A stretch of 64,000 nt of DNA from Vicugna vicugna (Eukaryota): the NCBI GenBank assembly GCA_013265495.1, contig MU058226.1, positions 520,741 to 584,740 on the forward strand. The letters run 5' to 3'. The notes under the pieces were generated by a model. That model was not told the DNA's origin. It saw nothing but the letters and a program-made list of their open reading frames with translations, and ran no database searches. Every line of letters begins with the position of its first letter. The stretch's first letter is position 1. The position numbers and the translations under genes are program-made. Shown here piece after piece: positions 21,380 through 56,315 of this stretch.

Positions 21380-24300
21380 ATGACGGCCAGAACTCTCCTC
21401 CTGCTGCTCTCGGGGGCCCTGGCCCTGACCGAGACCTGGGCGGGTGAGCGCGGGGTCGGGAGGGAACGGCCTCTTCTGGGGAGGAGCGAGGGGGCGGCCC
21501 GGTGGGGGCGCAGGACCCCTGGGGAAGGCGCGTCTCCACAGCTCTGCCCCAGCATCCACCTCGGCCCCGCCCTGTCCCTATCCTCCCCTGTCCCTTCCTG
21601 TTTCCCACAGAATCCTCTCACCCATTCAGGTCTCGTGCCGCCCCTTTTCCGTGTTGCGAGCCCCTCGCCCCGTCCGCCCTCCTGGCCCCACCACCTGGGA
21701 CCCAGAGACCCCCGCCAGGAGGAGGGTCGAATCTCAACCCCTCCCCGCCCCCAGGCCCCCACTCCCTGAGGTATCTCTACACCGCCATGTCCCGGCCGGG
21801 CATCGGGGAGCCCCGTTTCATCTCCGTCGGCTACGTAGACGACACGCAGTTCGTTCGGTTCGACAGCGACGCCGCGAATCCGAGGATGCAGCCGAAGGCG
21901 CGGTGGGCGGAGCAGGAGGGGCCGGAGTATTGGGAAGAGAACACACAGAATGTCAAAGTTTCTGCACAGACGTTCCGACTGGGCCTGAACATCCTGCGCG
22001 GCTACTACAACCAGAGCGAGGCCGGTGAGCAATGCGGAACCAGGTCAAGGTCAGGATCCTGCTCCCCCAGTGTGGCCCCGAGTTTCCGGGTCCAAGCCTC
22101 ATCCCGGGGTCCGCCTATCTGCCCAGTGTTCCGATAAGAGCCCGCGAGGTTTCTTTTGGGTTAGTTTTCCCTTTATTCTGAAAAGGCTCTGACCAGTCAC
22201 AGCCGGGAGACTTCCTTCGGGGGCGGGGCCAAGTGGGCGGGACTAATTTCAGTGGCTGGGTCAGGGTCTCACACCTACCAGTGGTTTTGTGGATGCGATG
22301 CTGCGCTGGACGGGCGCCTCCTCCGCGGATACAATCAGTTCGCCTACGATGGCGATGATTACATCGCCCTGAACCAGGATCTTCTTTCATGGACCGCGGC
22401 GGACACGGCGGCTCAGATCACCCAACGCAAGTGGGAGGCGGCCGGTGAGGCAGAGAAGAACAGAGCCTACCTGGACGGGGCATGCGTGGAGGAACTCCTA
22501 AGATTCCTGGAGAACGGCAAGGAGATGCTGCAGCGCGCAGGTACCAGGGGACGCAGGTGCCTACTGGATCTCTCGTCTGGCTAGGACTGTTGTCCCTGTG
22601 CTAGGGGAGGAAAACGGGATCGACGCCAGAATACCGCCTCTCCTATTCATGGGGAGATGTAGGAATCCAGACCAAGTGCTCAGACTGGGTACCAAAGAGT
22701 GCCTCGCGCTTCTCTGTAGACAGTTAAGGGATCTAGCTGTTCTGGGGATGGAGGGGAAGATTATCTCTGAAACAACTTACCAGCGGTTTCTTTGACTCTG
22801 GCAGTGGCTCTGGGAACCTTGGGGAACTCTCTCAAGCCTTGTTCTCTGTCCTACACTCAGGGTGTTGGAGATCTGACTCCAGCTTTTCAGAGTCTCTGGG
22901 CCTCCCCTCAATCCAGGACCAGAAATTCCTTTTCTTGGCCTCAGAGACCTGCCTCCCATCCTGGGCTATCTCACTCATTCCAGAAATTTCTGAAGAATAA
23001 GAAATTATCCCAGATGCCTGTGTCCAGGCTGGTGTCTGGGTTGCACTTCCTTCCCACACCCCAGTTGTTCTCTCTATTCTCACAACGGTCACATGAGCCC
23101 TGCTTCATGTGGCCCATGGGAGTTACTACAAAGTTCCTAAATTCCCTCACCTTTCTCCTCAGACCCTCCAAAAACACATGTGACCCACCACCCCATCTCT
23201 GACCATAAGGTCACCCTGAGGTGCTGGGCCCTGGGCTTCTACCCTGCGGAGATCTCACTGACCTGGCAGCGTGATGGGGAGGACCAGACCCAGGACATGG
23301 AGCTCGTGGAGACCAGGCCTGCGGGGGACGGGACCTTCCAGAAGTGGGTGGCCCTGGTGGTGTCTCCTGGAGAGGAGCAGAGATACTCGTGCCACGTGCA
23401 GCACGAGGGGCTTCAGGAGCCTCTCACCCTGAAATGGGGTGAGGAGGGAGACGGGGGTGGAGCTTCTTCTCAGGTATAGCGGAAGCCCTTCTGAAGACCT
23501 TCAACAAGGTCGGGACTCAAGCCTGAGGTTGGGCCCCTTCCCTTCTCTTTGCAGAGCCACCTCCTCAGCCCACCGTCCCCATCATGGGCATCATTGTTGG
23601 CCTGGTTCTCTTTGTGGTCATTGGAGCTGTGGTGGCGGGATTTGTGATCTGGAGGAAGAGGCGCTCAGGTACATAAGGAAGGGGAGCTGAGCTTTCTAGT
23701 CTCACTTCGGGGGTGATTCAAGCCCAGGTAGATGTTTGCCTGCCTCGTTAATGGGAAGTACCATCCCCACACATGTGCTTTCCCAGTGTGGGTCCCTATC
23801 TGCTAACATTCCTTACTAAAGCATATATGAAAATGAAGGACACATTATTCACTGTGATGAATCTCGTGATGGAGACCTGATTCCCAGCAGTCTCAAAATA
23901 GAGGGAAAGGTTGATGCTGAGGACAGACCTCCAGGAGGGCAGTTGGTCCAGTCACCAAACATGTACTTTCCTTATGTTTCCTGATCCTGTCTTGGATTTG
24001 AGATCACAGTTCTGGAAACTACTCTGGGGGCCAGGACCAGGGCATTCCTTAAGACCTCATGACCCTGCTTCTTCCCTGGCCTCTCACATGATGTTTTCTT
24101 CCTACAGGTGAAAAAGGAGGGAGCTATGCTCAGGCTGCAAGTAAGTACGGAGTGAGTGTGGTTCCTGAGACCCTTGTGATGGTGGAGCCGAGAGGCCATG
24201 GGGGGACCTCACCCCCCTCAGAGTTCCATCTCTAGTTTCTCTTCTGTGGGTTCTGATCACGTCCTGGTTTTGTTCTCCCCCAGGCAGTGACAGTGCCCAG

Positions 24301-24500
24301 GGCTCTGATGTGTCTCTCACGGATCCCAGAGGTGAGACACTGGGGGCCCTAGACTGGGAGAGGGGTTGGGGCAGAGGGGATACTGTGGGTGTGGGGATTC
24401 TCAGAGTGGGACATTTTGAGCATGTGGAGGGCTGTTGAGAATGTCAGCACTTCCATGACTGACCTGAATCGGTTCCTGATTCTTTTCTTTCACAGTGTGA
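21380..24500 (+). CDS. MHC class I heavy chain, 361 aa, probably non-classical (class Ib); exons 21380-21443, 21755-22024, 22265-22540, 23163-23438, 23555-23668, 24108-24140, 24284-24331, 24496-24500
   Basis: Leader [21 protein letters not shown]; alpha1 [10 protein letters not shown]…YYNQSEA; alpha2 with C101/C164; alpha3 with the CD8 loop [12 protein letters not shown] segment; full tail [28 protein letters not shown]. Canonical exon sizes 270/276/276/33/48 and an open 1086-nt frame. Confidence 0.97.
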
Positions 24501-31469: not shown

Positions 31470-34400
31470 TCAAAAACATTGCTGAGAAATATTCCAGGTT
31501 TTCCCTTATTTAAGAAAAAAAAATTGTAAGTGATCTCAGTGGCGTTATTATTCAGTATTATTATTCTCAACCTTTTAAAGAAGCTTAAAAGTCTATGGGA
31601 CACATCTTTTCATAGCAATACATTAAAATCTATTTTACTCCTTAAAATGGCCATTTAGAATTTTATCATATGACCTTTCTTTTGGGGACAATGGAAATGT
31701 TCTTTATCTTCACTGTGGTAATGGTAACATCGATGTATAAAATTGCCAGAACTCAACCAGCTGTGCATTTCAAATAGATACATTATAGTGTATGTAAAGT
31801 GTGTCCCAACCAAGTCGGTTTTAAAACCATCCTCCTCTTTGGAATCTGTACTTTGGTTATGTAAACCAACCAACCAAAGAAAACACCTTGTTCTTGTTGC
31901 TAAGAGCTTACACCCTGCACATCTGGAAGTAGAGTCCCCATGTCTGCAACTTACTCTCAAGTGGTCCAGCTATTACTCAAGAGTAATAGCTGTCTGTGTA
32001 TTCAGAGGGAGAGCAGTTATGATACATTTTAATAAATGACAGAATTAGATAAAGAATAAATACAAAAGTTAGAAATAATAAAAAAATCTTTAAAAATATA
32101 TTTCCCCTGTAGCTTTCATCCTTGTTCTTCACGCTTCCTTTCTTCAACACTTTCTCCCTCCCTTTCCCCCCTTTTCCAGTCTCACTTACATCTTATCCCC
32201 TGCACACTGGAGCCCCACCAGCTAACGCAGGTGACTGCATCCACCTACAGGTCAGGTACCCACAGGCGAGTAGACGTCGCCAGGGCAATTTGTAAGCTAT
32301 GCCTGGACCCGCTGTTACTGGATCCTTTCAGTGAAGTCACTCCAGTCTCAGATGGAAGTCACACCAGGTCTAAATTACGTTCCCCACGGAAGTAGGCAGA
32401 ACCTCGGTGGTTATTTCCTGGATTCTTAGTCATTGATTTTCAACCAGACAGGCAGAGACGGATTCAAAGGGGACTTTCCGAGGGGACCCCTTGCTTCCTG
32501 GGGTGGGAACGAGAGGCTGGGGGAAAACGGGAAGTCATTTTTGTTCTTAGATTCAAAATGAGTCTGATTCCAGGTCCTTCTTCCGGCTCTACCGACTCCG
32601 AATTCAGGCAGGTCTTCTTTTTCACAACCGTTAGTTTGAGAACCAGAAACCTAAATGCAGCTCGCTCCCCTCCCAACTTGCACATAAGTTCCTTTATTAT
32701 TCTTTTATATCAGTGAACAACTTTTATTTCCTTCAAGGTTTGGGGAATGAGTGATTTCCAGTCCTCCCTGTGAATTCTGGCCCCGCAGACTTGAAAACAC
32801 TCCAGGGCCTCCCTGCAAAGTCCCGCCTTCGGTGATGTGAACATCCGCTCAGTTTCATTTCTGGACTCAGCGGTGAAGCCAAAAATATGCGGAGATAAAG
32901 ACGCCACTATGTTTGTGAGTCCAGGGGTACAAAGATGACAGTGGAGGGAGAAAATGCCTTTTATGGGGTAGAGCAGAGGGGGCTGGAAGGAGCATGTGGG
33001 GCAGGGAAAACACTTTGTACGAAAGACAACCTGGGAGGGGAGGGTGGGTGGGGCGGGGAGCAGCCCCAACCCTGAACCCTGTACCATCAGGGCCTCTTCC
33101 ACCCCAGAATGAATAACATTGGCTTTATCTCTGATTACAATCATCTCCAGATGCTGTGCAACAAATCTGGCATATTATTAATATTAAAGTATTGAGTCTT
33201 TTTTTTTTTTTTGGTGGGATGAACTGAATGACACAGTTTGCTGGCACTGCCACAGCTAGAAGTCCTCCAGTGAGGGTTGACATTGTGGAGCAAGGTGCTT
33301 GGGACCCGCTGTCAGGAGACCTGGGTTCCATCTGCCTCTCTATATCTCACTATCCTTCTTATCTTTAGCTGAGAATGGGTACAGGACCCAATCCCTGACT
33401 GGCTAAATAAATTATGATGCTCAAAGTAATTAACTAGTAAAAATGGATGTAAAATCTAAGAAATGGTTAGAACTTCCTAATGCATGACATTTCCATCCAC
33501 AGAAAAAGTGTAGGATAGGGGTCTTAGCGGAATGCTTAGTAATGGTAGGCAGAGTTCAACTTGAAGAAGCATTTGTAGGAAGACAAAGATGAAATGAACA
33601 CAGTTCCTGGTCCTGGAGTGGCTCATTGTCTAATGAGGGGAGTATATGATGGTCATATGGGGTTCAAGGCAGGGCATGCTGGGTACCATTAGGTTCAAAT
33701 TATGGGCTGGACCAGTGGTTCTAAGACTTGCCAGTGCATTAGAATCACCTAAGGGAGCTTTAAAAGATTTGGAGGTCTGGGTCCAACCCAAGGGATTCAA
33801 TTGGTTTTGGCCATGGCCTGGGCATACAGGTAGTAAAAACTCTCCAGCTGGTTTTTGTTTTCTTTGAAGGATAGTTGATTTACTATGTTGTTTTAATTTC
33901 TGGTGTACAGCAAAGAGATTCAGTTATATATATATATATATATATATTCTTTTTCATTATAGGTTATTATAAGATATTGAATATAGTTCCCTGTGCTAGA
34001 CAATAGGACCTTGTTTATCTATTTTTGTGTGTGTGTATATGTATTTTACATATAGTAGTTCGCTAATCCCAAACTTCTAATTTATCCCAAACCCCACCCC
34101 TTCCCCCTTGGTAACCATAAGTTTGTTTTCTATGTCTGTGAGTCTGTTTCTGTTTTGTAAATAAATACATTTGTGTCATTTTTTAGATTCCACATATAAG
34201 TAATGTCATATGATATTTATCTTTCTATTTCTGACTTACTTCACTTGATATGAGAATGTCTAGGTTCATCTATGTTGCTGCAAATGACATGATTTCATTC
34301 TTTTTATGACTGAGTAGTATTCCATTATATGTATATATCATATCTACTTTATCTAATCATCTGTCAATGGACATTTAGGTTGCTTCCATGTCTTGGCTAT

Positions 34401-35276
34401 TGTAGTGTCCAGCTGGTTTTAATAAGCAGCCAAATTTGAGGACCATAGTGTAGGTATTCCAAAGACTAAGAGATGTGTGTTGGCACAACTTTCAGTAGAA
34501 GGAGGTTTACAGGATAGCATTATTGTTATTATATTATTATCAAGATACAGTTCATATATCACATAGTTCACCCTTTTAAAGTTACAGTTAAGTGATTTTT
34601 AAGATAATTCCAAGTTTTACCACCAATCCCACTCTGTAATTGGGATGATCTTGTAGGATGTGCAGTTCTGATGGGTTGAAGGCAGAGAATAGTCCATGGG
34701 AGGGTGATGCAGAAGCAGTGGCATCCTGGTGGGACAAGTTAAGGAGATGGGCCACTTTTACTGCAACTCAGGGAACATATCACCAGAGAAGTGGGGGGTG
34801 ATGCCAGACAGCTGGTTGTGGCAGCTGGGGCATCAGTGAGGGAGCAGAGGCATTATGTGTTATATCTGCAGACAGGGCAGCTGTGGATGGCTTGGGCATC
34901 ACGGTTATAACTGAGGACAGGTACAGGTTTAGGAGACCTTTGCGGTTCTCTAGGCTGAAGTAGATGAAAGCCTGGACTAAGGTAGCTGCTGTGGGATGGA
35001 ACAGGGGTTGGGGGAGCTGATGGTGAGTCCAAGAAAGGCAGGGGGAAAGGGATCAGAGGGGACCAAGCTGGTGGTGTTGCCAGAGAACTAGGGGGACAGG
35101 GAGAGGCTGGTGTGCTGGGAGGTGTAGAGTCTGCTTGTAGACCTGTTGGATTTGAGGGGCAGGTGGCCCCAGAGGTGCAGATGTCCTGAGGCAGGTTGGA
35201 AAGGGTGTCTGGAGAGAGGTTGGCGCTGGAGTGGATCATGGGGAGTGGCCTCACTGGGCTTGTGATCCCTGTCCCC
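31470..35276 (+). repeat. Inverted segmental duplicon, left copy (partner 48188 to about 50897)
   Basis: Reverse-complement similarity traced block by block. 34769-35276 is identical to the reverse complement of 48188-48695, and both give the same 133-aa spurious ORF. Confidence 0.93.
33856..34407 (-). mobile_element. 5'-truncated LINE-1 3' end, present only in the left duplicon
   Basis: 13-bp TSD TCCAGCTGGTTTT (33843-33855, 34408-34420). Absent from the right copy near 49065. Confidence 0.88.
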
Positions 35277-38139
35277 CCACCACCCCGCTGCGGGGGCTGA
35301 ATCTAGAGGTGGCTCTGGCTAAGTCCGACACTTACCGGATGAGGCTACAGGAAAGGAGACCTGGCTGGGTCTTGGAGTCATTGGGAAGAGGAGGAGGAGA
35401 TCATAATGGTGGTAACATCTAGGAGAGTGAGGCAACTGGGGAAGTGGTTTCTGAGAGGCAGAGGTGGCTGAAATCTGCAAATAGGTCTACAAACCTGATC
35501 CCCAGTGACCCTGCCAATAATGTTGCTGTGTGTAGCTGAGGGAGGGGCTGTGGGAGCCAACACTGGGAACGAAGAAGCAGTGAAAGACCAGCCAGGTGGC
35601 TGTCTCTAGAGGAGGTTGGTGAGACCAGAGCTGCTCCTGGCGAGGAATCTCCTCTGCTGGGGAGAGTGGCAGTGATCTGGGTGCTTCTGAGGTTGGGCTG
35701 CTAACACTTAGCTGCTCAGAGCCCTTCCCTGTGGCTTTTGACTGCACTCAGCCCCAGTCACACCTCCGTGGAGATTCTTTAAAAAAAAAGTTTTCCCAAT
35801 CTGAATATGCGTAGTTTACTGTACAGCAATCATACCACAATAAAGGTGTTAAAAAAAAAAAAAAGAGGAGAAAGCTTAAACAAACAAACCAAGAAGGAGA
35901 AAAAGTTTCCAACAATAGCAACAACAACCAAAAAAAAAAAAAAAAAAAAAAAGGAGGAGAAATCCTCCAAAAGAAAAAAAAAGCTTTCCCAGCTCTCATT
36001 TTTCTCTGGTGGCTCTGGTACTAGGCCCAGCCCACTGCCTTCTCCCTGACTCATTTTGTCTGTTCATTTGGCAGGGCTCAAGGGCCTACAAGAGAATCCC
36101 TCCTTCTGATTTTTTTTTAACGCAAGTTATTTCCTCCTTCTGATTTAATTAGAAGAGTCTAGATTTTCTTTTTTAGCTGGAGAAAGGCGAATCAGATGTT
36201 TTAGTTAATTTTCTAAAGCAGCATCTCCGCTACTCAGGCAGTTCTAAGACAAAATCATTGTCACGTGGCTGGACCACGTCCTCCTGCTTCTGTCCAGCGC
36301 TGCCTTTTTTCCACCCCTGGGTACCACCGCTGGTGAGTGGGGTTCAGTGAGGTCCTCAGGCAGGAGGCTGGGGCATTTCCAGGGGTCCAGGAAGGTTTCG
36401 GTGTCACTCAAGTGTCTGTTCAGGACTGTCCTTCCCCTTTCTTCCCAATTCCGGCCTCTTCTAACAGGGAGTTTCCAGGAGGCTGTGCTCAAGGGGCCTC
36501 AGTCCCTGGAGTTAGGGACATTTTTCTAGTGACCAGAAGCTCTAGGAAGGGTCCCCCCAAAACAAGTACTTTTACTTGTTTTCTATATTAAGTAATTCTG
36601 TAACTGCATGGCAATCTTAAAAAAATTTATTTTTTTCCAAAAAAGCAGCATGTCCTACTGTAAATCTCCACTTCCATGTCACTGGCCAGAATTACATCAG
36701 ATGGGCACCCCTGACCAACCACTGGAATGAAGGTGGGGTTAATCACCTAAGCAATGATGTCAACCACATATACTTTGAACTTATATGGTTATGGTATATA
36801 CTGTTCCCATTGTTTCAATGGTCACTCAGAATTCTTTTAAATGAGGGCTGTTTTTTTCCCCTAATAGTCTAAGGTTAATTGGTATTTTGGGGGCAGAGTG
36901 GAGGTAAGAAGGTTTATTTATTTCTTTTTTTAGAGGAGGTACTGAGGCTTGAACCTAGGACCTCGTGCATACTAAGCATTTACTGTACCACTGAGCTATA
37001 CCCTCCCCCCTCCAGTGTTTTATCTTATCTTCCTCTTGAAGAGAAGATACTTAACAGGCTTTACCTTTTCTCTGAATGACTTCCCTCCAAACCCAACTTT
37101 AATAGCGTGATGGAGTTTTGGATGCAGTAATAAGCCATGTGAAAATCAGGGAAACACAGCAAGATACGCTTTGTAGTGCAGGAACCATCTTGTTCTGCAG
37201 CAGAGCTGGAGCAGAGTGCCTGGTCTCTGACTCTAGGGTGATAGGAGCCAGGTGAAAGAAAATGTTGGATATGGTGTTTCTGCTAAAACAACCCCTTTAT
37301 ATGGGTCAGCATTTTGCCTGGTTACATTTTGTAAAGCTTCACTAAAGCTCAGGTGAACACTATAACCTAACCTTTTCTCACTCCACTCTGGTCTTTACAT
37401 CCTGCCATGTAGCTCAGAACAGTCATTGTTGCTGATGCTTAAAAGGAAACTCAAGAGGAGTGACTCTCAGTCTCAAGTCAAGTTAAGGGAAGAGGAGGTC
37501 TAGAGCCGTCTTCTGAAGCCTCGTTGGGTCCATGTTCTAGGATGAGTTGAGAACAGTCACTCATGTCACTCAGCTGCTGCCCTGTCCTTTTCCATGGACA
37601 AAAATATATGACAAGATCAGTGAACTGAGAGTTCCATGCCCAAACATGGCTTGGTACTGGACTGGTAGAGACAAGGGATTGAAAAAATAAGTCCAAACTC
37701 CTTCCCTGGAAAATCTGAGTCTTACGGTCTTGTTTCCTGGTATCCCAGTTGATTCTTACCTTTACATGCTTTGTGTGATGTTTCTTCTTCCTCTAAATGC
37801 CAATTATCACAGCAACAAATACAAAAACAGTAGCCATGAATCTCTGCCACAATCCCTAAATTGCGGGCATGCCTGAAATGGGATTGTTACACTGAAGATT
37901 TCTGCATGCCCTCTCTCTTTCTCTCTCTGTTTCTTCAAGAGAGGAAATAAAAACATGGAGCAATGCCTTCAAAATTCAGAAGGAAGAATCCTGGCACGGA
38001 ATTCGTCACCTAGCCAAACGATCCATCAAGCCAAAGAATAATACATTTTGAAGTACCTATCGTGTACTTTAAATATGCTCATAAGAAACCACTAAAATAT
38101 TAATTCCACCAAAATGAGAGAAGGTGTAAAATAGAGGAA

Positions 38140-38807: not shown

Positions 38808-41771
38808 AATGTATTCATGTGGATTTACCATTAAAAAAAAAGAGAAGAGAAAGAAGTAGACTACAGAAGACTGGACATACAACACAGAAGAAAGACGCAA
38901 GATACTTTCTACCTCAGCTACCAAACACGGACCAGCAGAATCAGCACTGCATGAAAACCAAGCTCACAGTTCCCATCCTTGGCACTCTTAATCAATCTGC
39001 ATCTTAGTAGGATGCCCAGGTGACGCCACTGCACTTAAAAACCCTGCCAAGATGGCGGTGGAGGGAGATCCCTAGGAGGGTGGCTCTGCTCCAGATGTAG
39101 AAGAATCCAGCCCAGGTGGGAACACGTCAGAAGGGCCCAGGAGGGATAGTTCTAAGAAGGAAAAATTGATAGAATACCCAAAGTATCCTCACTTCTTGAA
39201 AGAGTCATCCAAATAGAAGAAATGGCAAAGTTGAATTAGTGACAGCTACGTAGAAAATAATCAGACGAAAACAAAGGCAATTATTAACTCCAGGGAGAAC
39301 AAGAGGTTGTGCAGAAAGTGAGAAGTAGTAGAGTTTACATACGAGAGCATTAGTCATGGAAAAGAAAACACTGAGTCAGCTAAACATGATTCCCATTTAA
39401 ATATACTGGGAAAAAGAAGGAATGGGAAGAATGAAAGGAAACAATGACTATTAACTATTGCATCAGCCACTGTTGTGATGCAACCGACAGTGGCTGCAGC
39501 AGAAAAATCAAGCAGCAGTAGTAAAGGCATGGTGTTTAGAGATTTGGAAGTAAAAGCCAAAGGAATCAGCTGAAAAATATTGAAAGCAGTCACCTCTGGG
39601 AAGGCAGAAATTGAGAGGAAACAGACAGGACTACAATATAGTACATTTCATGAGAAATCTTGTGCAGATATTTGACTCCTTAACTTACAGGCAATTGTGC
39701 CTTTGATTAAAATAACCACAAAAAAATTGAATGGGTATAAAATTTTATGCTTAGTGACAACTGACGACAACAAATGATACTTGTGAACTGACTAAAAAGC
39801 AAGAATACTCAAATGGAAACATACATGCACAGGTGTGTGGATGGCATCAATCCTGAATAAAAACGTGAAAGAATTTGTCAATATACACAAAGCTGGGTAA
39901 ATAGATGGGTGAATGAATTCTTTATCCCAGCCACCTTACCGTGCACCTTATGAACCAGGGAGAGAGGGAACAGTACCTGACTAGGACCCTTCATCATCAT
40001 CTTGCTTCCAGGCAGGTCCTGCTGCAGAAGGCACTCCCCTCAGCTGCTTCCAGTCTGTGGGAGGTCCCCCCTAGCCCACTCTGCCATCAGTGCTTTACCT
40101 GGGCGGGGCTAAGTTTGTCCTGACTGGAAAAAGCACTACGCACACGCATGCCCCAAGACCAGAAGTTAGGAAGGACTAAGCATCAGGTGGATAAATATCT
40201 CACCTCCCCATTTGCCTTGCAGAAATCATTCTGAACTGATGGAGAGACATGCTGATGTATGACTGATTCACTCACATTCCGTGTTCCTTTACTCTCTCAT
40301 CAGCCTAGTCCTCAGCAGTCACTTCACCCCAGGAGCAGACAGACCCCTATTCTTATAATCAGGAAACCCCAAAGCAACGTCCCTGTCCCCTCCCCTAATG
40401 TCACTCTTCAGCTCTGCTTCATCACATGAGGGTTCCAACTATTCAGGGAAGATTTCCCCCTCAGGGGCAGCCCCTGAACATTGGCCCAGGCGTTCCATTG
40501 CATCTTCTCCCAGCCCTGTATGCTTCTGTTGTGACTCTGTCAGTCACTGGGAGCTGGAGGGGTCAGGGGGAGCAGAATTTTCAGTGCTGCCTCGAGGCAT
40601 GGAGATATACCTCTCCTTCTCTGATATCCCTTTCCAGACCCAGGAAATAAAACATAGACCAGATATGTGTGTTTAAAGAGCATTAAAATTTATAACGTGA
40701 AATTATAAAGATACTGCAGAGTGAAGTAATGGATATACAAGTGCGACGGGGGTGAAGGGAACATCAGGTTTCCAGAAACCTACAATAAGTCTCCTCAGGA
40801 GGAGCGGCAATGAAGGAATTTACAGATAAATCTTATTTATAATAATATAACCAGTCCATTTAATATATTACTCTAATATAATAAGAATAGTGTTAAATAG
40901 TGTGGAGCAGCTGGAAGCACCTCATATATATTCCAGTTTTAGTCCTATGAACCTCACTTGGAAATAAACAGTTTTTCTCATTTTGTGGATGAGGAAACTG
41001 AGGTATCAAGAGGGAAATTTCCAGTCAGACCAGAGTGGGGAGCTGAATTTAGGCCTCCCAGGTGCAGAATCTAAGCTCCCGCAGTTGAATTGATCTGACT
41101 ACGAAGACTTAAATTCCAGTTGTGAGGCTACTACGGCGGTGTGGAGCCAGGTCTTGTAGGCTAATGTGCTCTGGAAAAAAAGAGAAACCAATAAATAAAT
41201 GACCAACTGGTTGCAGAATATTGCTTTCTATTCCCTTAGAGATTCTCCTTCAGTTGCTCCAAAATCAGACTCTGCCTTTCTCCGAGGGACGACGACACTC
41301 CTCCTTTGTTCCCGCTCACCCCACTGTCCCCCGCCCTGGCTGGAATCCTCCCCTGCCTCCCTCAACATCATCACCTGTCCCTGCTTCCAGAACCCTCCAT
41401 GCAAGGGACAAAAGTCCACAGGACTAGAGGACAAGATCCAGGAGTGGACACTTCAGTCCAGATGCCTCCCTCGACCTGGTGCCAGGCTGCCCACCAGACA
41501 GACCCTGGCTCCATGTTCCTCCAGGCCTGGGAATGGACACACACACAACTCCTTTCTCTCCTCACTTCTCAGGCCGCTTCACCTGCGCCAGCACCTGCAT
41601 CTCAGGCCCTGACCTCCCACCTGCAGCCCAGCCTCCTGCCTTCCCCAGGCCCTGAGCCAGTAGCTCCTCACTGGAAAGCCCACTGGGAAGCCCAGGTGAC
41701 CTGCAGGCCCAACTAGAAAAACTGGGCCGCCCCAGGCTCTGTACCTGACCTGACCCTGGAGCAGCCCCTGC

Positions 41772-41965
41772 TCACAGAGGCCTGGCCCCGCCCCGCCCCT
41801 CACTCCCCACCCAGGCTCTCGGGCTGCACTTGGCCTTCCCTGCTCCTTCCTGGTCCACTGGCTCCTGAAATCTCAACTCCACCCCAAGTGCTGCTGCTTG
41901 GCGAAGCTGCACGTCCCTCCTGCCCTGTTCCAAGCAGGGATTCAACCAGGACCTGCCCTCACTAC
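41772..41965 (-). other. Vestigial MIC cytoplasmic exon 6 (now 3' UTR)
   Basis: Acceptor CCCCTACAG|GTAGTGAGGGCAGGTCCTGG… resembles MICA exon 6 (GCAGGTCCTGG; LRFQ versus LGFQ). It is in frame with exon 5 beyond the TGA. Confidence 0.65.
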
Positions 41966-42405
41966 CTGTAGGGGACCTGCTTCTCAGTGTGGCTAGACCT
42001 CTGATTCCAGGATCACCTAGACCCTCGCAACCAGCACATGATCCAACACATCCCCCTAGATGAGGCCTGGCGGGCCTGAGAGTAGCAAGAAAGGGATGAA
42101 AACAGAGCACACAACCGTCACTGCCACCCAGTCTCATCCAGAGCAAGGAGAGGCCCCAGCCAGACTCTAAGGGCCCAGCCTAGCCCTGGCTTTGAGCGGG
42201 GCTGAGGGCTTAAAGCAGATGTGGCTCCCATTCCCCTCACAAATGTCCATCACCCACTTCTTGTTGCAGAGGCTTGTTATCTTCTCGTTTCTGTGCAGAG
42301 GGGCATCTAGGGGACCCTACATCCTAGGCAGAGCACCCCGCTTCCCTCCCTCTGCCCAGATTTCTTACCTGGGCTCTCCACAGCTGATGTCGTCGTCTTC
42401 TTGGA

Positions 42406-45400
42406 TCAAAACATGATGGAAATAACACAAACCACAGCAGCAGCCAGAATCAGCCATGGGCTCCAGTGCATCAGGGTATTTCCTGGGAAAGAGCCTTCTT
42501 ATAATCCTGGCTCCCTCTCCCCGACCCTGGTCTCTGACCCTCCCAGGGATCACCCCAGCCTCACCAGAGGACGCAGGGTGTGCACTGTGATTCCCGCTGT
42601 GGTCCTCGTGGCACGTGAACCTCTGCTTCTCTCCTTGGGGAATATTTATGGTCACCCAGGTCCAGTAAGTTCCGTTCCCATCAGGCAGGACACCCCCAGA
42701 CTGCTGGGCATCCTGGTTCACGCGGTCCTCATCCTGAAGCCAGGCCACTGAGATATTCCGGGGAAAGAAGCCAAAAGCCCAGCAGGACAGGTTGACCCTG
42801 CCCTCCAAGGCCTGGCTGAGGGTCACGTTCACTGCTGGAGGCACTGGGAGCACAGGGCCAGTGAGGCTTGTGGCCACACCCTGCTCCCCTCTAAGGGAGA
42901 CGAGAGAATGGGGCTGCTCCCCACTACCTCTCCAACTCTGGCTGAGCCCTCACCCACCCCAGCCCTTCTCCAAGTCTGCTCGACACCCTGGGGCCCAGTT
43001 CCTTTAGACAGGCAGGAGGATGGGCCGAGACTGGATCTACATGTGATGCTGAGGAGGGAGATGTGAGGGCTGGGCTCTCAGGGACCAGGAGGGAACCTGC
43101 TGTGACAGAAAGGCTGGGAGCCAGGGGGCCGACCCCCAGTCTAGGAGCTTCCTCTCCTGCCTGACACCCACCTTCCCTGGGACAGTTTTCTGTCAGAGGG
43201 CCCGCTGCTTCCCTGGATTACTGTCACTGGGATGGTTCCTTCCCCTCCCCTCCTGTACCTGCCCGTCTCTCTACAGATGTTTAACAGAACAGCAAATCGC
43301 AACACAACATGCCAATGCGACATACATGCACCCGGACTGTAGGGAGGGTTTCTGTGGGCAGAGCTGGGGCGGGGAGGCTCCAGGGGTCTGGGACAGGAAG
43401 GCCCCGGCCCAGGGTCAGTACCTGTTCTGTCCGTGAAGCCCATCCGGGACTCCACGTAGCTCTGCAGTCTTGCACAAAGCTCTCCCTGCACATGGGCCCG
43501 GTAGTGCTTGCTTTGAAAGCCATCCGTGTCCCAGGACTTCTTGATTTCCATGGCCAAGGTCTGATCCAGGGACTGGGGCACTCTACATCCATGGGTCTCC
43601 AGGTGACAGGAGAGGAAGAGCTTCCCATCATAGCAGATACTCCTGAAGCCCCTGGCCTGGCCATCTTCTCGGATTTCACAGCCCACAGTCTCCTGCAGGG
43701 AATGCAAGCCTGCCCCCACCGAGCAGTGACCCTCCGGTTCTGGTTCCATGTCCTTCTGCCCTTCGGCCCAAGTGAGAAATTCCAGCCAGAGGGCTCCCTC
43801 TCTGCTGCCCTCCATGTCTTCCCTGTGCGGGCTGAGTCATGGTCACCTCCCTGCTGACTTCACAGACCCCCCTTCCTCAGCATTCCCCTCCCCCACCAAA
43901 TCCAGGGAAAAGAGACAGATCCCTGTTCTGGGCCCAGACTTGCCTGGGAAATGCCTCACAGCACTTTCGCCCCTTCCCCACTCTCACCTCCTTTCTCCTC
44001 CTGCAGGGACATTGTTTCTGCCAGAAGTTGTCTGAGGTCCCTTCCATTCTCTGTCAAGTCCTTGATCTCTGTGTCCCACGTCTCAGCTGCAAAGTCTTCT
44101 GCCCACGGTCCCTGGGGCTCTGCCCTGCCCTTCCCACTGTCATAGTGCAGGAAGGCCTGACCATCCAAGCGTCCCTCAGCTGAAAAGCTCGGCTGCACAA
44201 ACCCGTCCTGGCACAGCACTGTGAGGCTGTAATGGAGACTGTGCGATCCTGGGGAGGACGGAGTGCAGGTGAGACTGCTTTCTGGAAACGAGGGCCCATC
44301 AAATGTTGAACAGAAAGGTTCTGCTGTCCTGACCTTCTCCAGATCTCAAGGATGCACAACAGGCATGTGTACCGAGGGACGAGAATGAGGATTTCCACAC
44401 AGGAATAAAAGGAAAGGAGAAAGGAAGGAGCTAGGAACTGAGGAATGAATTGGGGGAGGAGGACAGAGATGGCAAACATGTAGGACAGGTGCCAGGACAG
44501 GGCAACACTGGCTCCCTAAGGGTCCAGGTAAGAGGTCCGGGGAGAGGCTGGCCTGCGGAGGAAGGGAGAGGCAGAGAGAGGCAAGAAGACCAGGGTGAGG
44601 GGAGGTGGACCAGAAGGGAGGCAGGGGCCCTAGCAGGCCCAGGATCAGAGGGGCCCACCTGGCAGAGGGCTCCTTGGTCAGGGGTGGGTCAGGGGTGGGT
44701 CAGGGTGAGGTGGAGAGCGAGGCCTGCTGTCTGTGGTGAAGGCTCACTGGGGACAAGGTGGAGTCAAGGGAGGGTGAGGCAGGAGGCAGAGGGGCCTGCG
44801 GGGCTGGCTTGTGGCACTAACAGAGTTTCAGGTAGGCCAGTGCCCCCCGGGGGAGCTGAAGGAGGGGGTCTGGGTCCAGAGTGCAAGAGGCATGGTGAGG
44901 CCCCACTTAGGGAGGGGAATAAACCTGCCAGTGTGCCCTGGGGAGAGGTAGGTGTTGAGGGATTCAAAGGGTCAATGCAGTGTGCCCAAGGACCATCTAG
45001 AATTAGAAGGAGGGGCTGGCAAGAGAAAATAGAACTTCAGTGCCTAGTGCACATTGGAAAGGACCTACATGGTGGGAGTGGTTTGGGGGGCAGGTCTTAC
45101 CCCACAGAGGGGTAGGGTCAGACATCCAGTGCAGGAGGGGTGGTGCTGGGAGAAGGCCCCTGTAGGGAAAGGCCAGCCCACCAGGTGGCATAAACAAGGA
45201 CTTTGGATACATGATTGAGGTAGTGATAGCTCACTGGGGTCAAGGGACCAAAGAAGATATTGAAGGCCAAGGAGCTGGGCAGTTGGACCAAGGATTCTTT
45301 CAGGGGGAAGGGTTGCAGAGGGGATCATGCCTGGGATTGGGGTACAGGGGATGAGTGGGGCTCAAGGGTGACTCTGGGAGACCTTGGGTTAGGGTGAAGA

Positions 45401-48002
45401 CAGAACAGGAGGAGTGCTCTGGGTGAGGGACCTTGAGAATACTGGTTCCCAGAGGAGGGGGCTTGTGACTGATGAGAACTTGGTGAGGGTCCAAGGCAGG
45501 TGGGCAGGGGTGGGAGCAGGGTAAGGTGCCATAGGGGGAGGTGCAGAGGGACCAGGGCAAGTGCAGTCCAGCACCTGTGGGGTGGAGAGTGGAGGCCTCA
45601 AGAGGGTGAGTTCAGCAGCATGCACAAAAGTAAACTCAAAATGGCTTAAAGATTTGAATGTAAGACAAGACACTATAAACTTAAGCCTCTTAGAAGAAAA
45701 CATAGGCAAAACATTATCTGACATAAATCTTAGCAGTGTTCTCCTAAGGCAGTCTACCCAGGCAATAGAAATAAAAGCAAAACTAAACAAATGGGACCTA
45801 ATTAAACTTATAAGCTTTTGCACAGCAAAGGAAACCATAAACAAAACAAAAAGACAACCTACGGAATAAGAGAAAATATTTGCAAATCATGTGACTGACA
45901 AGGCTTAATTTCCAGAATATACAAACAGCTCATATACTTTAATAACAAAAAAAGAAACAACCCAATCCAAAAATGGGCAAGACCTAAACAAGTAATTTTC
46001 CAATCAAGGTATACAAATGGCCAATAAGCGCATGAAAAAATGCTCAGTATCACTAATTTTTGGAGAAATGCAAATCAAAACTACAATGAGGTATCCACAC
46101 CAGTCAGAATGGCCATTATTAAAAAGCCCACAAAAGATAAATGCTGGAGAGAGTGTGGAGAAAAGGGAACGCTCCTACACTGCTAGTGGGAATGTGGTTT
46201 GGTGCAGCCGTTATGGAAAACAGTATGGAGATCCCTCAAAAAAACTAAAACTAGACTTACCATGTGATCCAGCAATCCCTGGGCATATATCCAGAGGGAA
46301 CTCTAATTCGAAAAGATAAATGCACCCCAGTGTTCATAGCAGCACTACACACAATAGCCATGACATGGAAACAACCTAAGTGTCCACTGACAGGTAATTG
46401 GATAAAGAAATTGTGCTGCATCTTCTTTGTCCATTTATCTTTTGACGTGCACTTGGGATGCTTCCATGGCTTAGCAACTGTAAGTAGTGTTACTATTAAT
46501 GGTGGGGTGTGTGTATCTTTTTGAAGTAGTGTTTTTGTTTTTCTTAGATGTATGCGCAGGAGTGGAATTGCTGGGCCATGTGATGGTTCTGTTTTTGGGT
46601 TTTTAAGAAACCTCCATATTGTTTTCCATAGTGGCTACACCAATTTACATCCCTACCAACAGTTTTCAAGGGTTCCCTTTTATCCACATCCTTGTCAACA
46701 TTTGTTATTTGTGTTCTTTTTGATCATGGCCATTCTGACAGGTGTGAGATGATATCTCGTTTTGATTTTGATTTGCATTTCCCTGATATTAGTGATGAGA
46801 AGTTTTTCATATTCTTGTTGGCCATCTACATTTCCTCTTTTGGAAAAACGTCTGTTCAGTTATTTTGCCCATATTTTAAATGGGTTGTTTGTTTGCTTTT
46901 TAATTGAAGTACAGTTGATTTAAAATGTTGTATTAGTTTCTGGTGCACAGCATGGATGGACTTGGAGGGCATTGTGCTGGGTGAAATGGGCCAGACAGAG
47001 AAAGACAAGTACTCTAAGACATCACTTACATATGGAATCTAAAAAAGTACAACAAATACAACAAACTAGTTGAATATAACAGAAAAGAAACAGACTGGCA
47101 GATGTAGAGAAGGGACGAGTGGTTACCAGTGGGGAGAAGGAAGGGGGAGGGGCAAGATGGAGGTGGAGGATTAAGAGGTACAAACTATCTGGTCTAAAAT
47201 AAGCTATAATATTGTACATCAACTATACTTCAATTTAAAAAATATGATATTGTAAAATAAATATATAAATAAAATTTTAAGTGGTTTTAAAAAACTCAAA
47301 AAGGAAAGAAAAAAAGAAAAGAAATGTGGTCGGCACTTGGGCCCTTCCTGGAGCTCCCTAGTCACTAAAAAAAGGCCTTAAGTCCAGGGACTGAGGTTCC
47401 TGGAGCACTGTCTGCCTGGAATTTCCTTTTACCCACAGGCAGCGCAGGGAAGAAGGCTGGGCAGAAAACAGCAAGAAAAAACAGTGCTCAGGCATCTGAG
47501 AGGGCAAAATCCCCCTCAAACGGGAAGGAATTGGTAAACTCCAGCATCGGGGTTGGGGGAGCGGCGTCGTCGGGGTGATGGTGGGGGGAACACGGGTGTG
47601 GGGGCAGCCTTCCGACCCAGGGGTGTCAGAGGACTCAGGTCTGAAGAAGAGGAAGGAGGGAGGGACGGTGGGTGCAGCCCGAAAAGAAGCTGGAAAGAGT
47701 GCAGAAGCCAGACTGAGCTGTGACGGGAACAGGCGGCACCCGGCTTCCGGCCCCCTCCCCGACCTTACCCTACCTCTCCCCATCTCCCCCAGCTCTTACC
47801 CCGTTCCCCGCTCCCCGCTCCCCACCCGCGCCGCACCGCCAGTGAGTCGGTCCCCTCGACGCTCAAGAATTCCACGGGACCCCTGAAGCCGCCCCAGGCT
47901 CCCGGCTGCGAAGCTCAATGAACCCCACTCACCGGCTGTGGCACCTGGGGTTAAAAGAAGGACAACAACGGCTGGAAACATCAGGACAAGGAGAAGCCTC
48001 AA
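42406..48002 (-). CDS. MHC class I chain-related (MIC-family) NKG2D ligand; exons 48002-47933, 44248-43988, 43709-43422, 42843-42565, 42482-42406 (stop); 324 aa from TTG or 317 aa from ATG 47981
   Basis: alpha1 [16 protein letters not shown]…LDGQAFL…PQGPWAED…[17 protein letters not shown]; alpha2 [16 protein letters not shown]…YDGKLFLS…QTLAM; alpha3 VPPAVNVT…[12 protein letters not shown]…[13 protein letters not shown]. All align with MICA/MICB. Phase-1 GT-AG introns; exons of 70/261/288/279 nt. Orthology to MICA versus MICB cannot be assigned. Confidence 0.9.
45620..47320 (+). mobile_element. Composite LINE-1 insertion in MIC intron 1 with an internally inverted segment
   Basis: 45620-46410 is sense ORF2 ([15 protein letters not shown]…[16 protein letters not shown]); about 46415-46950 is antisense; about 46950-47320 is sense 3' UTR with an A-rich tail. 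Confidence 0.85.
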
Positions 48003-54578: not shown

Positions 54579-56315
54579 GGGTGTGGGGTTATAGTTCAGT
54601 TGGTAGGGTACATGTTGAGTATGCACAAGCTACCTGGTTCCATTCCCAGTAACTCCATTTGTTTTTTGTTTCTTAATCTTTTAAATTTTTCATACTTTAT
54701 TATTTGTATTGATAGGTTAAGAAAGTAGAATTTTCCTAAGTACTGTTTCATAGATAATGTTCATAAGCAGCACACAAAACATTCAGTTTCACAAAGAGTA
54801 ATGTTCAATGATCCCTCTAAATGCAGTTTTAATCGTTTCTTTAAGCTAAGTGCAAGAATAATACAATAAGCTCAATACACACAAAACCTGTATATGTATA
54901 TCCTGAACTACAAAAGTGGTTTCCACAGCCATGTATGGTTTTAGTCAGGAACACATTTTCACAGTGAACAAGTACTAACAAATATGTTAATAAAAAGTTA
55001 CTGCAAATGCTTATTCTGCCATCAGCTTTTTCAGCAACACCATTCCTGCTGCAGAAGGCACTTATTAGAAGCTTTAATCTGGACCTAGGAAAATGAGTTC
55101 TCTTAAAAATTGACAAATAGTGTATTATAAGGTTTTAAATCAAATAAGCCTTCCAACACAAAAGCAGTCACATAAAACTTTTAGTTTCTCAAAAAATAAG
55201 AAACAAAAAAATTTAAAATCACTCTTGTTATCTAAAGAAAAGAGTATTAAAACAAATTATCTTAAGACAAATAAACACTCCTACAAAAGGCTGTATTTTC
55301 TTATATCATTTTCTCCTTAAAAGAAACACAAATCAGTTCACTACCTTTTAATAACTTCTTTGACTACTGTAGTCTAAAAACTTTAGAATACATGAAACAT
55401 GTCTTTATGAGCGATCATAAAGTCAAAGGTGCCTTTTAAATTTCATGTATTAAACAGCTACAGTACAGCCTACAATGGCACAAATACACCTAACATATAA
55501 ATACTACTTCATTTAAATGGTCAAAAGTCAGAAGGAACTGAACGGTTTGCAAGGTACTTTGACATATATGTGGTCATTAAAATCCAATAAGTAATTCAAG
55601 TCTGGTAATATAATGGCAGGCAATTAAAGGCTCAAATATCACTCTAAAATCAAAGACATGAAAATTAAGACTGAAAACTTTGTGGTTCTCCACCTTTCAT
55701 TCACATGGCTAGATATCAGGACCTTACTGTGAAAAATACAGTTATTAAATGTGGTTTCCCCAGAAGACAATGAAGCTTCAGAAAGTACAAAAGGTGTCAA
55801 GACCCACAGTTTGCTTCATCAAATGCTTTTCTAGCTTGTTTCAATTCTTCATTCCTAGTAAGCAAGTCTTTAAACCTAGCAAACTTTCTTGGGTCCTTTC
55901 AAATCAAAAACGGTATCTTCAATTTGTACAAGACCTTGTCTTCCAATTGACATTGCCTTGTGAGTCGTTGCAGTGATGAACTCTATGACAAGGTCTTCAA
56001 GAATATCCACTGACTCAGTATAAGGATTCTGGTCATCCCCAAACCCATACACCATATATCTTAATTCTTTAGAAAAAAGTCTCTTTCTTTCACCCTGTCT
56101 ACCTTCTGTACCTCTTCCAATTTCTTCATTTTCTTCTTCAAACCGATTCTGAACTTGGCCTCCGCTACTGTGCCCAAAGGGGTAAGGGAAAAAGCGGGCT
56201 GGAACAGAGGTGTTCACTCACAGTGAGGTCTTCTTCACCTGCCATTCCACCAGCCTGCCACCTCCAGCAGCCTCCTGCTTCTGCGTGCCCAGTACCTCCA
56301 TTTGAAAAACTAAAA
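54579..56315 (+). mobile_element. Vic-1-type SINE split by the TAF13 retrocopy
   Basis: Head at 54579-54660 and tail after 56288. Own TSD taaaaccaa(c/t)a(c/t)ta at 54565-54578 and 56316-56329. Confidence 0.85.
54662..56287 (-). pseudogene. TAF13: TAF13 processed pseudogene (CDS remnant 56245-55797, long 3' UTR, poly(A) remnant)
   Basis: MAGEEDLT…FEEENEEIG…RKRLFSKELRYMVYGFGDDQNPYTESVDILEDLVIEFIT…HKAMSIGRQG with a frameshift near 55905. AATAAA at 54701-54696. TSD CCCAGTA(A/C)CTCCATTTG at 54645-54661 and 56288-56304. Confidence 0.95.

Follow-up and report, generated by a model that had tools for sequence, protein, structure and literature searches.

The human MICA allele MICA*008 is very common, and its GPI anchor alters shedding, trafficking and viral evasion. 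The anchor goes back to a frameshift (PMC4410604, PMC10316631), and the protein has been described as maturing slowly and as carrying a signal that most predictors miss (PMC10316631). GPI signals are also reported to have arisen several times independently among CEACAM proteins (PMC2832619), as for pig CEACAM60, in which a single nonsense change in the transmembrane exon produced a GPI anchor that PI-PLC releases and the tail exon is degenerate (PMC13212111). ULBP2, an MHC class I-like NKG2D ligand, is described as GPI-anchored through a canonical C-terminal signal (PMC10491789). Here we describe the MIC gene in a 64,000-nt stretch of Vicugna vicugna DNA (the window, meaning the whole stretch that was analysed). 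Its truncation is real and camelid-wide, and a GPI anchor is plausible as a prediction from the encoded C-terminus. Our preferred reading, to which we assign a probability of roughly 55%, is that camelid MIC is a lineage-fixed, GPI-anchored NKG2D ligand.

Structure of the camelid MIC gene and its surroundings

The minus-strand gene of the window is camelid MIC and comprises five GT-AG exons followed by a relic of exon 6. Its product differs from the alpaca RefSeq protein XP_031544167.1 at a single one of 301 mature residues, and a PDB search with this alpaca orthologue places the alpha1-alpha2-alpha3 ectodomain nearer to MICA/MICB (best matches with E about 1e-90 to 1e-78) than to classical class I molecules (1e-42). 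The ectodomain matches both Pfam PF00129 and PF07654, the MIC exon order of leader, alpha-1, alpha-2, alpha-3, transmembrane (TM) and tail exon is present, and a class I gene in the same window places it inside the MHC class I region. All on the minus strand, the coding part of exon 1 (47933-47981) specifies a leader of 16 residues with, by eye, a 7-residue hydrophobic core and an Ala-x-Ala end; exon 2 (43988-44248) encodes the alpha-1 domain, exon 3 (43422-43709) the alpha-2 domain, exon 4 (42565-42843) the alpha-3 C1-set domain (PF07654, 42.5 bits) and exon 5 (42369-42482, flanked by AG/GT) 38 codons covering a spacer, a hydrophobic segment, a stop and a relic tail. The product size of 317 or 324 residues given in the initial annotation is correct, with 317 residues counted from Met 47981, where XP_031544167.1 also begins, and 324 from a TTG at 48002.

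This TTG (48002-48000) aligns with the camel start Met, so that the upstream ATG is gone and the remaining Met 47981 stands in a weak start context. About half of 23 leader positions (47933-48002, minus strand) differ from the camel RefSeq leader, against 94% identity of the mature protein, and the divergent leader with its TTG possibly stems from gene conversion or from a different exon-1 copy. Camelid RefSeq models further use two alternative acceptors on the minus strand, one at 44281 that adds 11 residues including an extra cysteine before alpha-1, and one at 42747 that drops 96 nt, equal to 32 alpha-3 codons with the first Ig cysteine among them. Part (32 codons) or all of alpha-3 is missing from most camel models and from both camel proteins derived from Logan contigs. 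Such skipping is no camelid novelty, as it recurs in models from deer, cattle and sheep, among them tailed deer and cattle MIC models.

Elsewhere in the window, an MHC class I gene at about 21400-24500 (plus strand) has open alpha1, alpha2 and alpha3 frames and, by eye, transmembrane and tail exons. An intronless-looking match to Pfam TFIID-18kDa (PF02269, 63 bits) at 55879-56217 (minus strand) is probably what we take it to be, a processed TAF13 copy. The 5' region of MIC has an inverted partial duplicate (31473-36554 on the plus strand versus 50894-47339 on the minus strand), including a block of 887 nt with 92% identity (34409-35276 versus 49072-48188) and, near 36270-36334, an exon-1 remnant that has no ATG and a leader similar to that of rhino MIC. 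The 64,000-nt window showed no second alpha1-alpha3 set, and MIC is likely single copy in camelids, judging from word-filtered protein searches.

A stop codon shared by camelids at the end of the transmembrane exon

Exon 5 carries an in-frame TGA (42406-42408) directly after a hydrophobic segment of 16 residues (42409-42456) and 37 nt ahead of its donor, as the initial annotation had pointed out, except that the peptide given there contained four alanines where exon 5 encodes three. The TGA precedes the basic residues, so no basic stop-transfer sequence or cytoplasmic tail follows the TM segment; both persist behind the stop as an in-frame, untranslated relic that fills the 37 nt up to the donor (42369-42405; SKKTTTSAVESP). 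The GCT tract is indeed (GCT)3, and the suggestion of a route other than that of MICA*008 holds, given a nonsense change and no GCT-tract frameshift.

Whether this TGA is fixed or polymorphic had been left for comparison across camelids. We retrieved 13 camelid MIC proteins (alpaca, dromedary, Bactrian and wild camel records, a MetaClust entry and two Logan contigs), 12 of which end at the TGA; the remaining one is a model that runs on into intron 4. A sequencing error or a rare null allele is thereby ruled out as the source of the TGA. Since one assembly contributes several of these proteins as isoforms, independent sampling comes down to four species from two tribes; these are the camel and llama tribes, whose split is dated to about 16 Myr ago (PMC5577142), and the stop common to both predates this split. 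Both Logan-derived camel proteins terminate at the TGA and span exon junctions, which means that spliced transcripts carrying it exist in camels. Our word-filtered protein searches found no tailed camelid MIC, and a metagenome scan gave one unrelated locus only, at 31% identity. Among 97 non-camelid proteins, 44 have a recognisable TM segment, and the four tail-less ones among these 44 all represent one sheep/goat paralogue.

The camelid C-terminus as a predicted GPI attachment signal

GPI signals have been described as a small omega residue followed by a non-Pro residue at omega+1 and a small one at omega+2, then 8-12 hydrophilic and 15-20 hydrophobic residues, with an unstructured polar linker upstream of omega (PMC10491789), for which we considered about 10 residues. 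The camelid C-terminus, proposed as such a signal in the initial annotation, agrees with this pattern on four of five features. The candidate omega, omega+1 and omega+2 residues, as predicted from this pattern, are Ser-Ser-Gly in both camelid lineages and lie at 42565-42571 of the window (minus strand), starting with the omega Ser codon TCC at 42571-42569 and ending with the first base of the Gly codon, which is split between exons 4 and 5. They are followed by a spacer of 8 residues (Kyte-Doolittle, KD, -0.63) and a hydrophobic end of 16 residues (15 in camels; mean KD 2.79), and the region back to omega-10 is polar (KD -1.31). The feature that may depart from the pattern is the fold of this linker from omega-10 to omega-1, which is modelled as a strand: In the AlphaFold model (26 sequences, mean pLDDT 69.6), the last alpha-3 strand of the full-length form (295-300) stops two residues before omega, and extending to residue 300 it suggests that the linker is not unstructured in this form. 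In the isoform with truncated alpha-3, the linker would be unfolded. In some GPI proteins, Thy-1 for example, the omega site lies at a domain end.

The omega column holds Ser in both camelid rows and in none of the 24 others (20 Pro, 1 Leu, 1 Ala, 1 Thr and 1 gap). An omega-like triplet near the junction is also present in 8 of 24 tailed outgroup MIC rows, so that the triplet alone is weak evidence. Exon 5, with its 38 codons, is shorter than in the 11 outgroup rows counted (40-49 codons). The initial annotation had explained the conversion by one nonsense change; the nonsense stop is real, and this account is nevertheless too simple because exon 5 was also shortened and Pro was replaced by Ser at the proposed omega. 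As far as the alignment tells, the conversion consists of the stop, the exon 5 shortening and the Pro>Ser exchange, which may have come in any order.

The hydrophobic segment might instead stay uncleaved in the bilayer, so that the MIC protein would be transmembrane without a tail or would exist in both TM and GPI forms. It is strongly hydrophobic (best 15-residue KD 3.03, as high as in tailed MICs) and a 16-residue helix in the AlphaFold model, and the proximity of the omega site to a folded strand would suit an uncleaved segment. ULBP2 occurs in such a mixed TM/GPI state. For pig CEACAM62, whose stop falls close to the TM end, a membrane-spanning form has been described (PMC13212111). However, 16 residues with no charged residue behind them are short for a stable bilayer span by textbook standards, exon 5 has lost 2-11 codons relative to the 11 outgroup rows, and retention in the membrane leaves the camelid-specific omega Ser unexplained. 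We consider retention unlikely and a GPI anchor on camelid MIC plausible, as predicted from the C-terminal pattern.

Decay of the tail exon behind the stop

In the initial annotation, an open frame at 41772-41965 (minus strand) was taken as a still-open exon 6. When each AG between 42368 and 36000 is treated as a possible phase-1 acceptor and compared with how exon 6 begins in 22 ruminant proteins, the weak acceptor of this frame ranks 236th of 484, which leaves the region to intron 5. Rank 1 goes to the acceptor at 41170 (EHISLQDL versus EPISLQDL; score 27.6, next 9.3), which has 85% pyrimidines and no extra AG compared with 45% and three extra AG for the acceptor at 41965. The open frame at 41772-41965 has no Pfam match. 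Set against three ruminant tails, it reached p=0.03-0.05 in shuffles at a low score of 25, a likeness that we count as chance next to the exact junction match at 41170. Other frames of the 41170 exon match the sperm whale tail (LAYKTW, then HNW past a gap), and these matches in shifted frames indicate a deletion and a frameshift, behind which stops follow (TAA at 41111-41109). By these comparisons, the true exon 6 begins at 41170 (41040-41170, minus strand, with an approximate lower boundary) and is decayed, as is expected for a tail exon behind an old stop; a candidate ATTAAA lies at 40864. A further strong acceptor in intron 5, at 42075 (minus strand), is homologous to that of an alternative exon in an oryx MIC model, and its frame is closed in the window by a TAG after six codons.

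A stop at 37 nt from the donor would escape nonsense-mediated decay under the 50-55 nt rule, as had been proposed, given no exon junction further downstream. In 14 RNA or presumed-RNA runs from 5 studies, we found 0.28-0.39 of the words of 41700-44400, a share of words and not of reads placed on the locus; the predicted share is 0.31-0.32 for exons 2-5 alone and 0.38 with the formerly proposed exon 6 added, and we draw no evidence from these shares.

Constraint and relaxation in camelid MIC

Without stop-transfer residues, the protein could also be poorly anchored and trafficked, be released into the ER lumen and then be degraded or secreted, so that camelid MIC would be a transcribed gene under relaxed selection with loss of function under way. 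For MICA*008, degradation by ERAD is described when anchoring fails (PMC10316631). The camelid gene shows signs that, read from its sequence, point to relaxation, namely the lost upstream ATG with only a weakly placed Met remaining, a Val>Glu exchange in the alpha-3 core (F strand, Glu in New World camelids versus Val/Met in 24 of 24 outgroup rows), an Arg inside the hydrophobic segment of one camel Logan protein (P0056) and the omission of alpha-3 from most camel models and both Logan proteins. The strong leader difference between camels and the window would fit loss as well. We simulated neutral evolution up to 18 amino-acid differences with indels assumed at 0, 0.05 or 0.1 per substitution, and 25%, 9% and 3% of runs, respectively, kept the frame and the splice sites intact; this neutral survival of 3-25% speaks for loss of function without being decisive.

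Several observations speak against such a loss. Alpha-3 skipping extends to tailed deer and cattle MICs, and the window alpha-3 scores 42.5 bits on the C1-set model, inside the range of nine outgroup proteins (38.6-50.3). No frameshift or internal stop ahead of the TGA was found in any of the camelid proteins retrieved, yet exon 6 of the window is decayed, and no tailed camelid MIC turned up in the protein searches. Over about 16 Myr per branch, the alpha1-alpha2 region of camel and window has diverged at just 6-9 of 183 residues. In the main camel comparison, these domains differ at 6/183 positions versus 12/117 for alpha3 plus exon 5 (Fisher p=0.022), with no such contrast in a hippo control (56/182 versus 42/118, p=0.45); for other camel alleles the contrast is weaker (9/183, p=0.10; 7/166, p=0.055). 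All camel-window differences are younger than the stop, and we see in this a hint that the receptor-binding platform (alpha1-alpha2) may still be under constraint. We regard loss of function as a less probable course; should the protein be degraded, camelids would amount to a lineage naturally deficient in MIC.

A model for camelid MIC and tail-less MICs in other lineages

Under the preferred reading of a GPI-anchored ligand, a nonsense change would have arisen late in the transmembrane exon before the camel/llama split and been joined by the shortening of exon 5 and the Pro>Ser exchange just upstream, turning the TM segment into a C-terminal GPI-attachment signal. The leader would bring the protein into the ER, where the GPI transamidase would cut after Ser291 (Ser302 in XP_031544167.1) and GPI would replace the last 26 residues. 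The alpha1-alpha2(-alpha3) ectodomain would then be displayed on the surface as a lipid-anchored ligand able to bind NKG2D, and the tail exon, no longer used, would have decayed.

Tail-less MICs are also encoded by a caprine paralogue (goat XP_017894316.1, sheep XP_060259283.1 and bighorn XP_069419609.1; P0017, P0028, P0093 and P0094), which ends directly after the hydrophobic segment like camelid MIC. It differs from camelid MIC in stop position and lineage, its omega column still holds Pro, and the species that carry it have tailed paralogues too; its tail-less form appears to be independent of that in camelids. An internal donor of this paralogue removes most of alpha-3, and in ibex, muskox and one goat model skipping occurs near this point of alpha-3. 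A peccary MIC model (P0068) shows a 4-residue tail after the TM segment and Ala-Cys-Gly at the omega position, and its short tail may be a modelling artefact.

A fixation of about 16 Myr in camelids, apparently with no tailed MIC, and the sheep/goat parallel offer natural replicates for asking whether NKG2D ligands gain an adaptive advantage from GPI conversion. A bolder and rather improbable proposal would be that the sole MIC of camelids was remodelled into a ULBP-like ligand, GPI-anchored via a selected omega site and with alpha-3 mostly spliced out or reduced to an unfolded stalk, family-wide for at least 16 Myr; the caprine paralogue would then be convergent, and MIC-to-GPI conversion would be recurrent and selected in mammals (human allele, camelid fixation and caprine paralogue). 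For camelid immunologists, the immediate consequence is that camelid MIC has no cytoplasmic tail.

Comparison with known systems

The truncated C-terminus is already present in RefSeq models. In literature searches we found no description of a camelid or ruminant MIC anchor, and in passages of a camel MHC synopsis (PMC6829570) we found no mention of the truncation; a characterisation of camel MICA (HLA 2019, doi 10.1111/tan.13510) may contain one. With MICA*008 (MICA A5.1 group, as described), camelid MIC shares the ectodomain, a TM exon that ends early and the absence of a cytoplasmic tail, and MICA*008 is still classed as a MIC despite lacking stop-transfer sequence and tail. MICA*008, however, is a frameshift allele that segregates beside tailed alleles and MICB, whereas the camelid change is an in-frame nonsense mutation found in each of the four species retrieved, and it comes with a signal of canonical appearance and a predicted anchor. 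Like pig CEACAM60, as reported, and primate GPI-CEACAMs, camelid MIC has its stop in the TM exon and a degenerate tail exon; CEACAM60 belongs to another protein family and is a duplicate beside an intact CEACAM1, while no tailed camelid MIC was found beside the truncated gene. ULBPs have no alpha-3 exon and are located outside the MHC. Camelid isoforms that omit alpha-3 would have the alpha1-alpha2-GPI layout of ULBP/RAET1 proteins, from which the camelid gene differs by its alpha-3 exon and by its best matches, which are MIC. The precedents of CEACAM60 and MICA*008 mean that the route to a GPI anchor is already known; what appears to be new is its family-wide fixation in a MIC gene, together with the parallel tail-less paralogue of sheep and goats.
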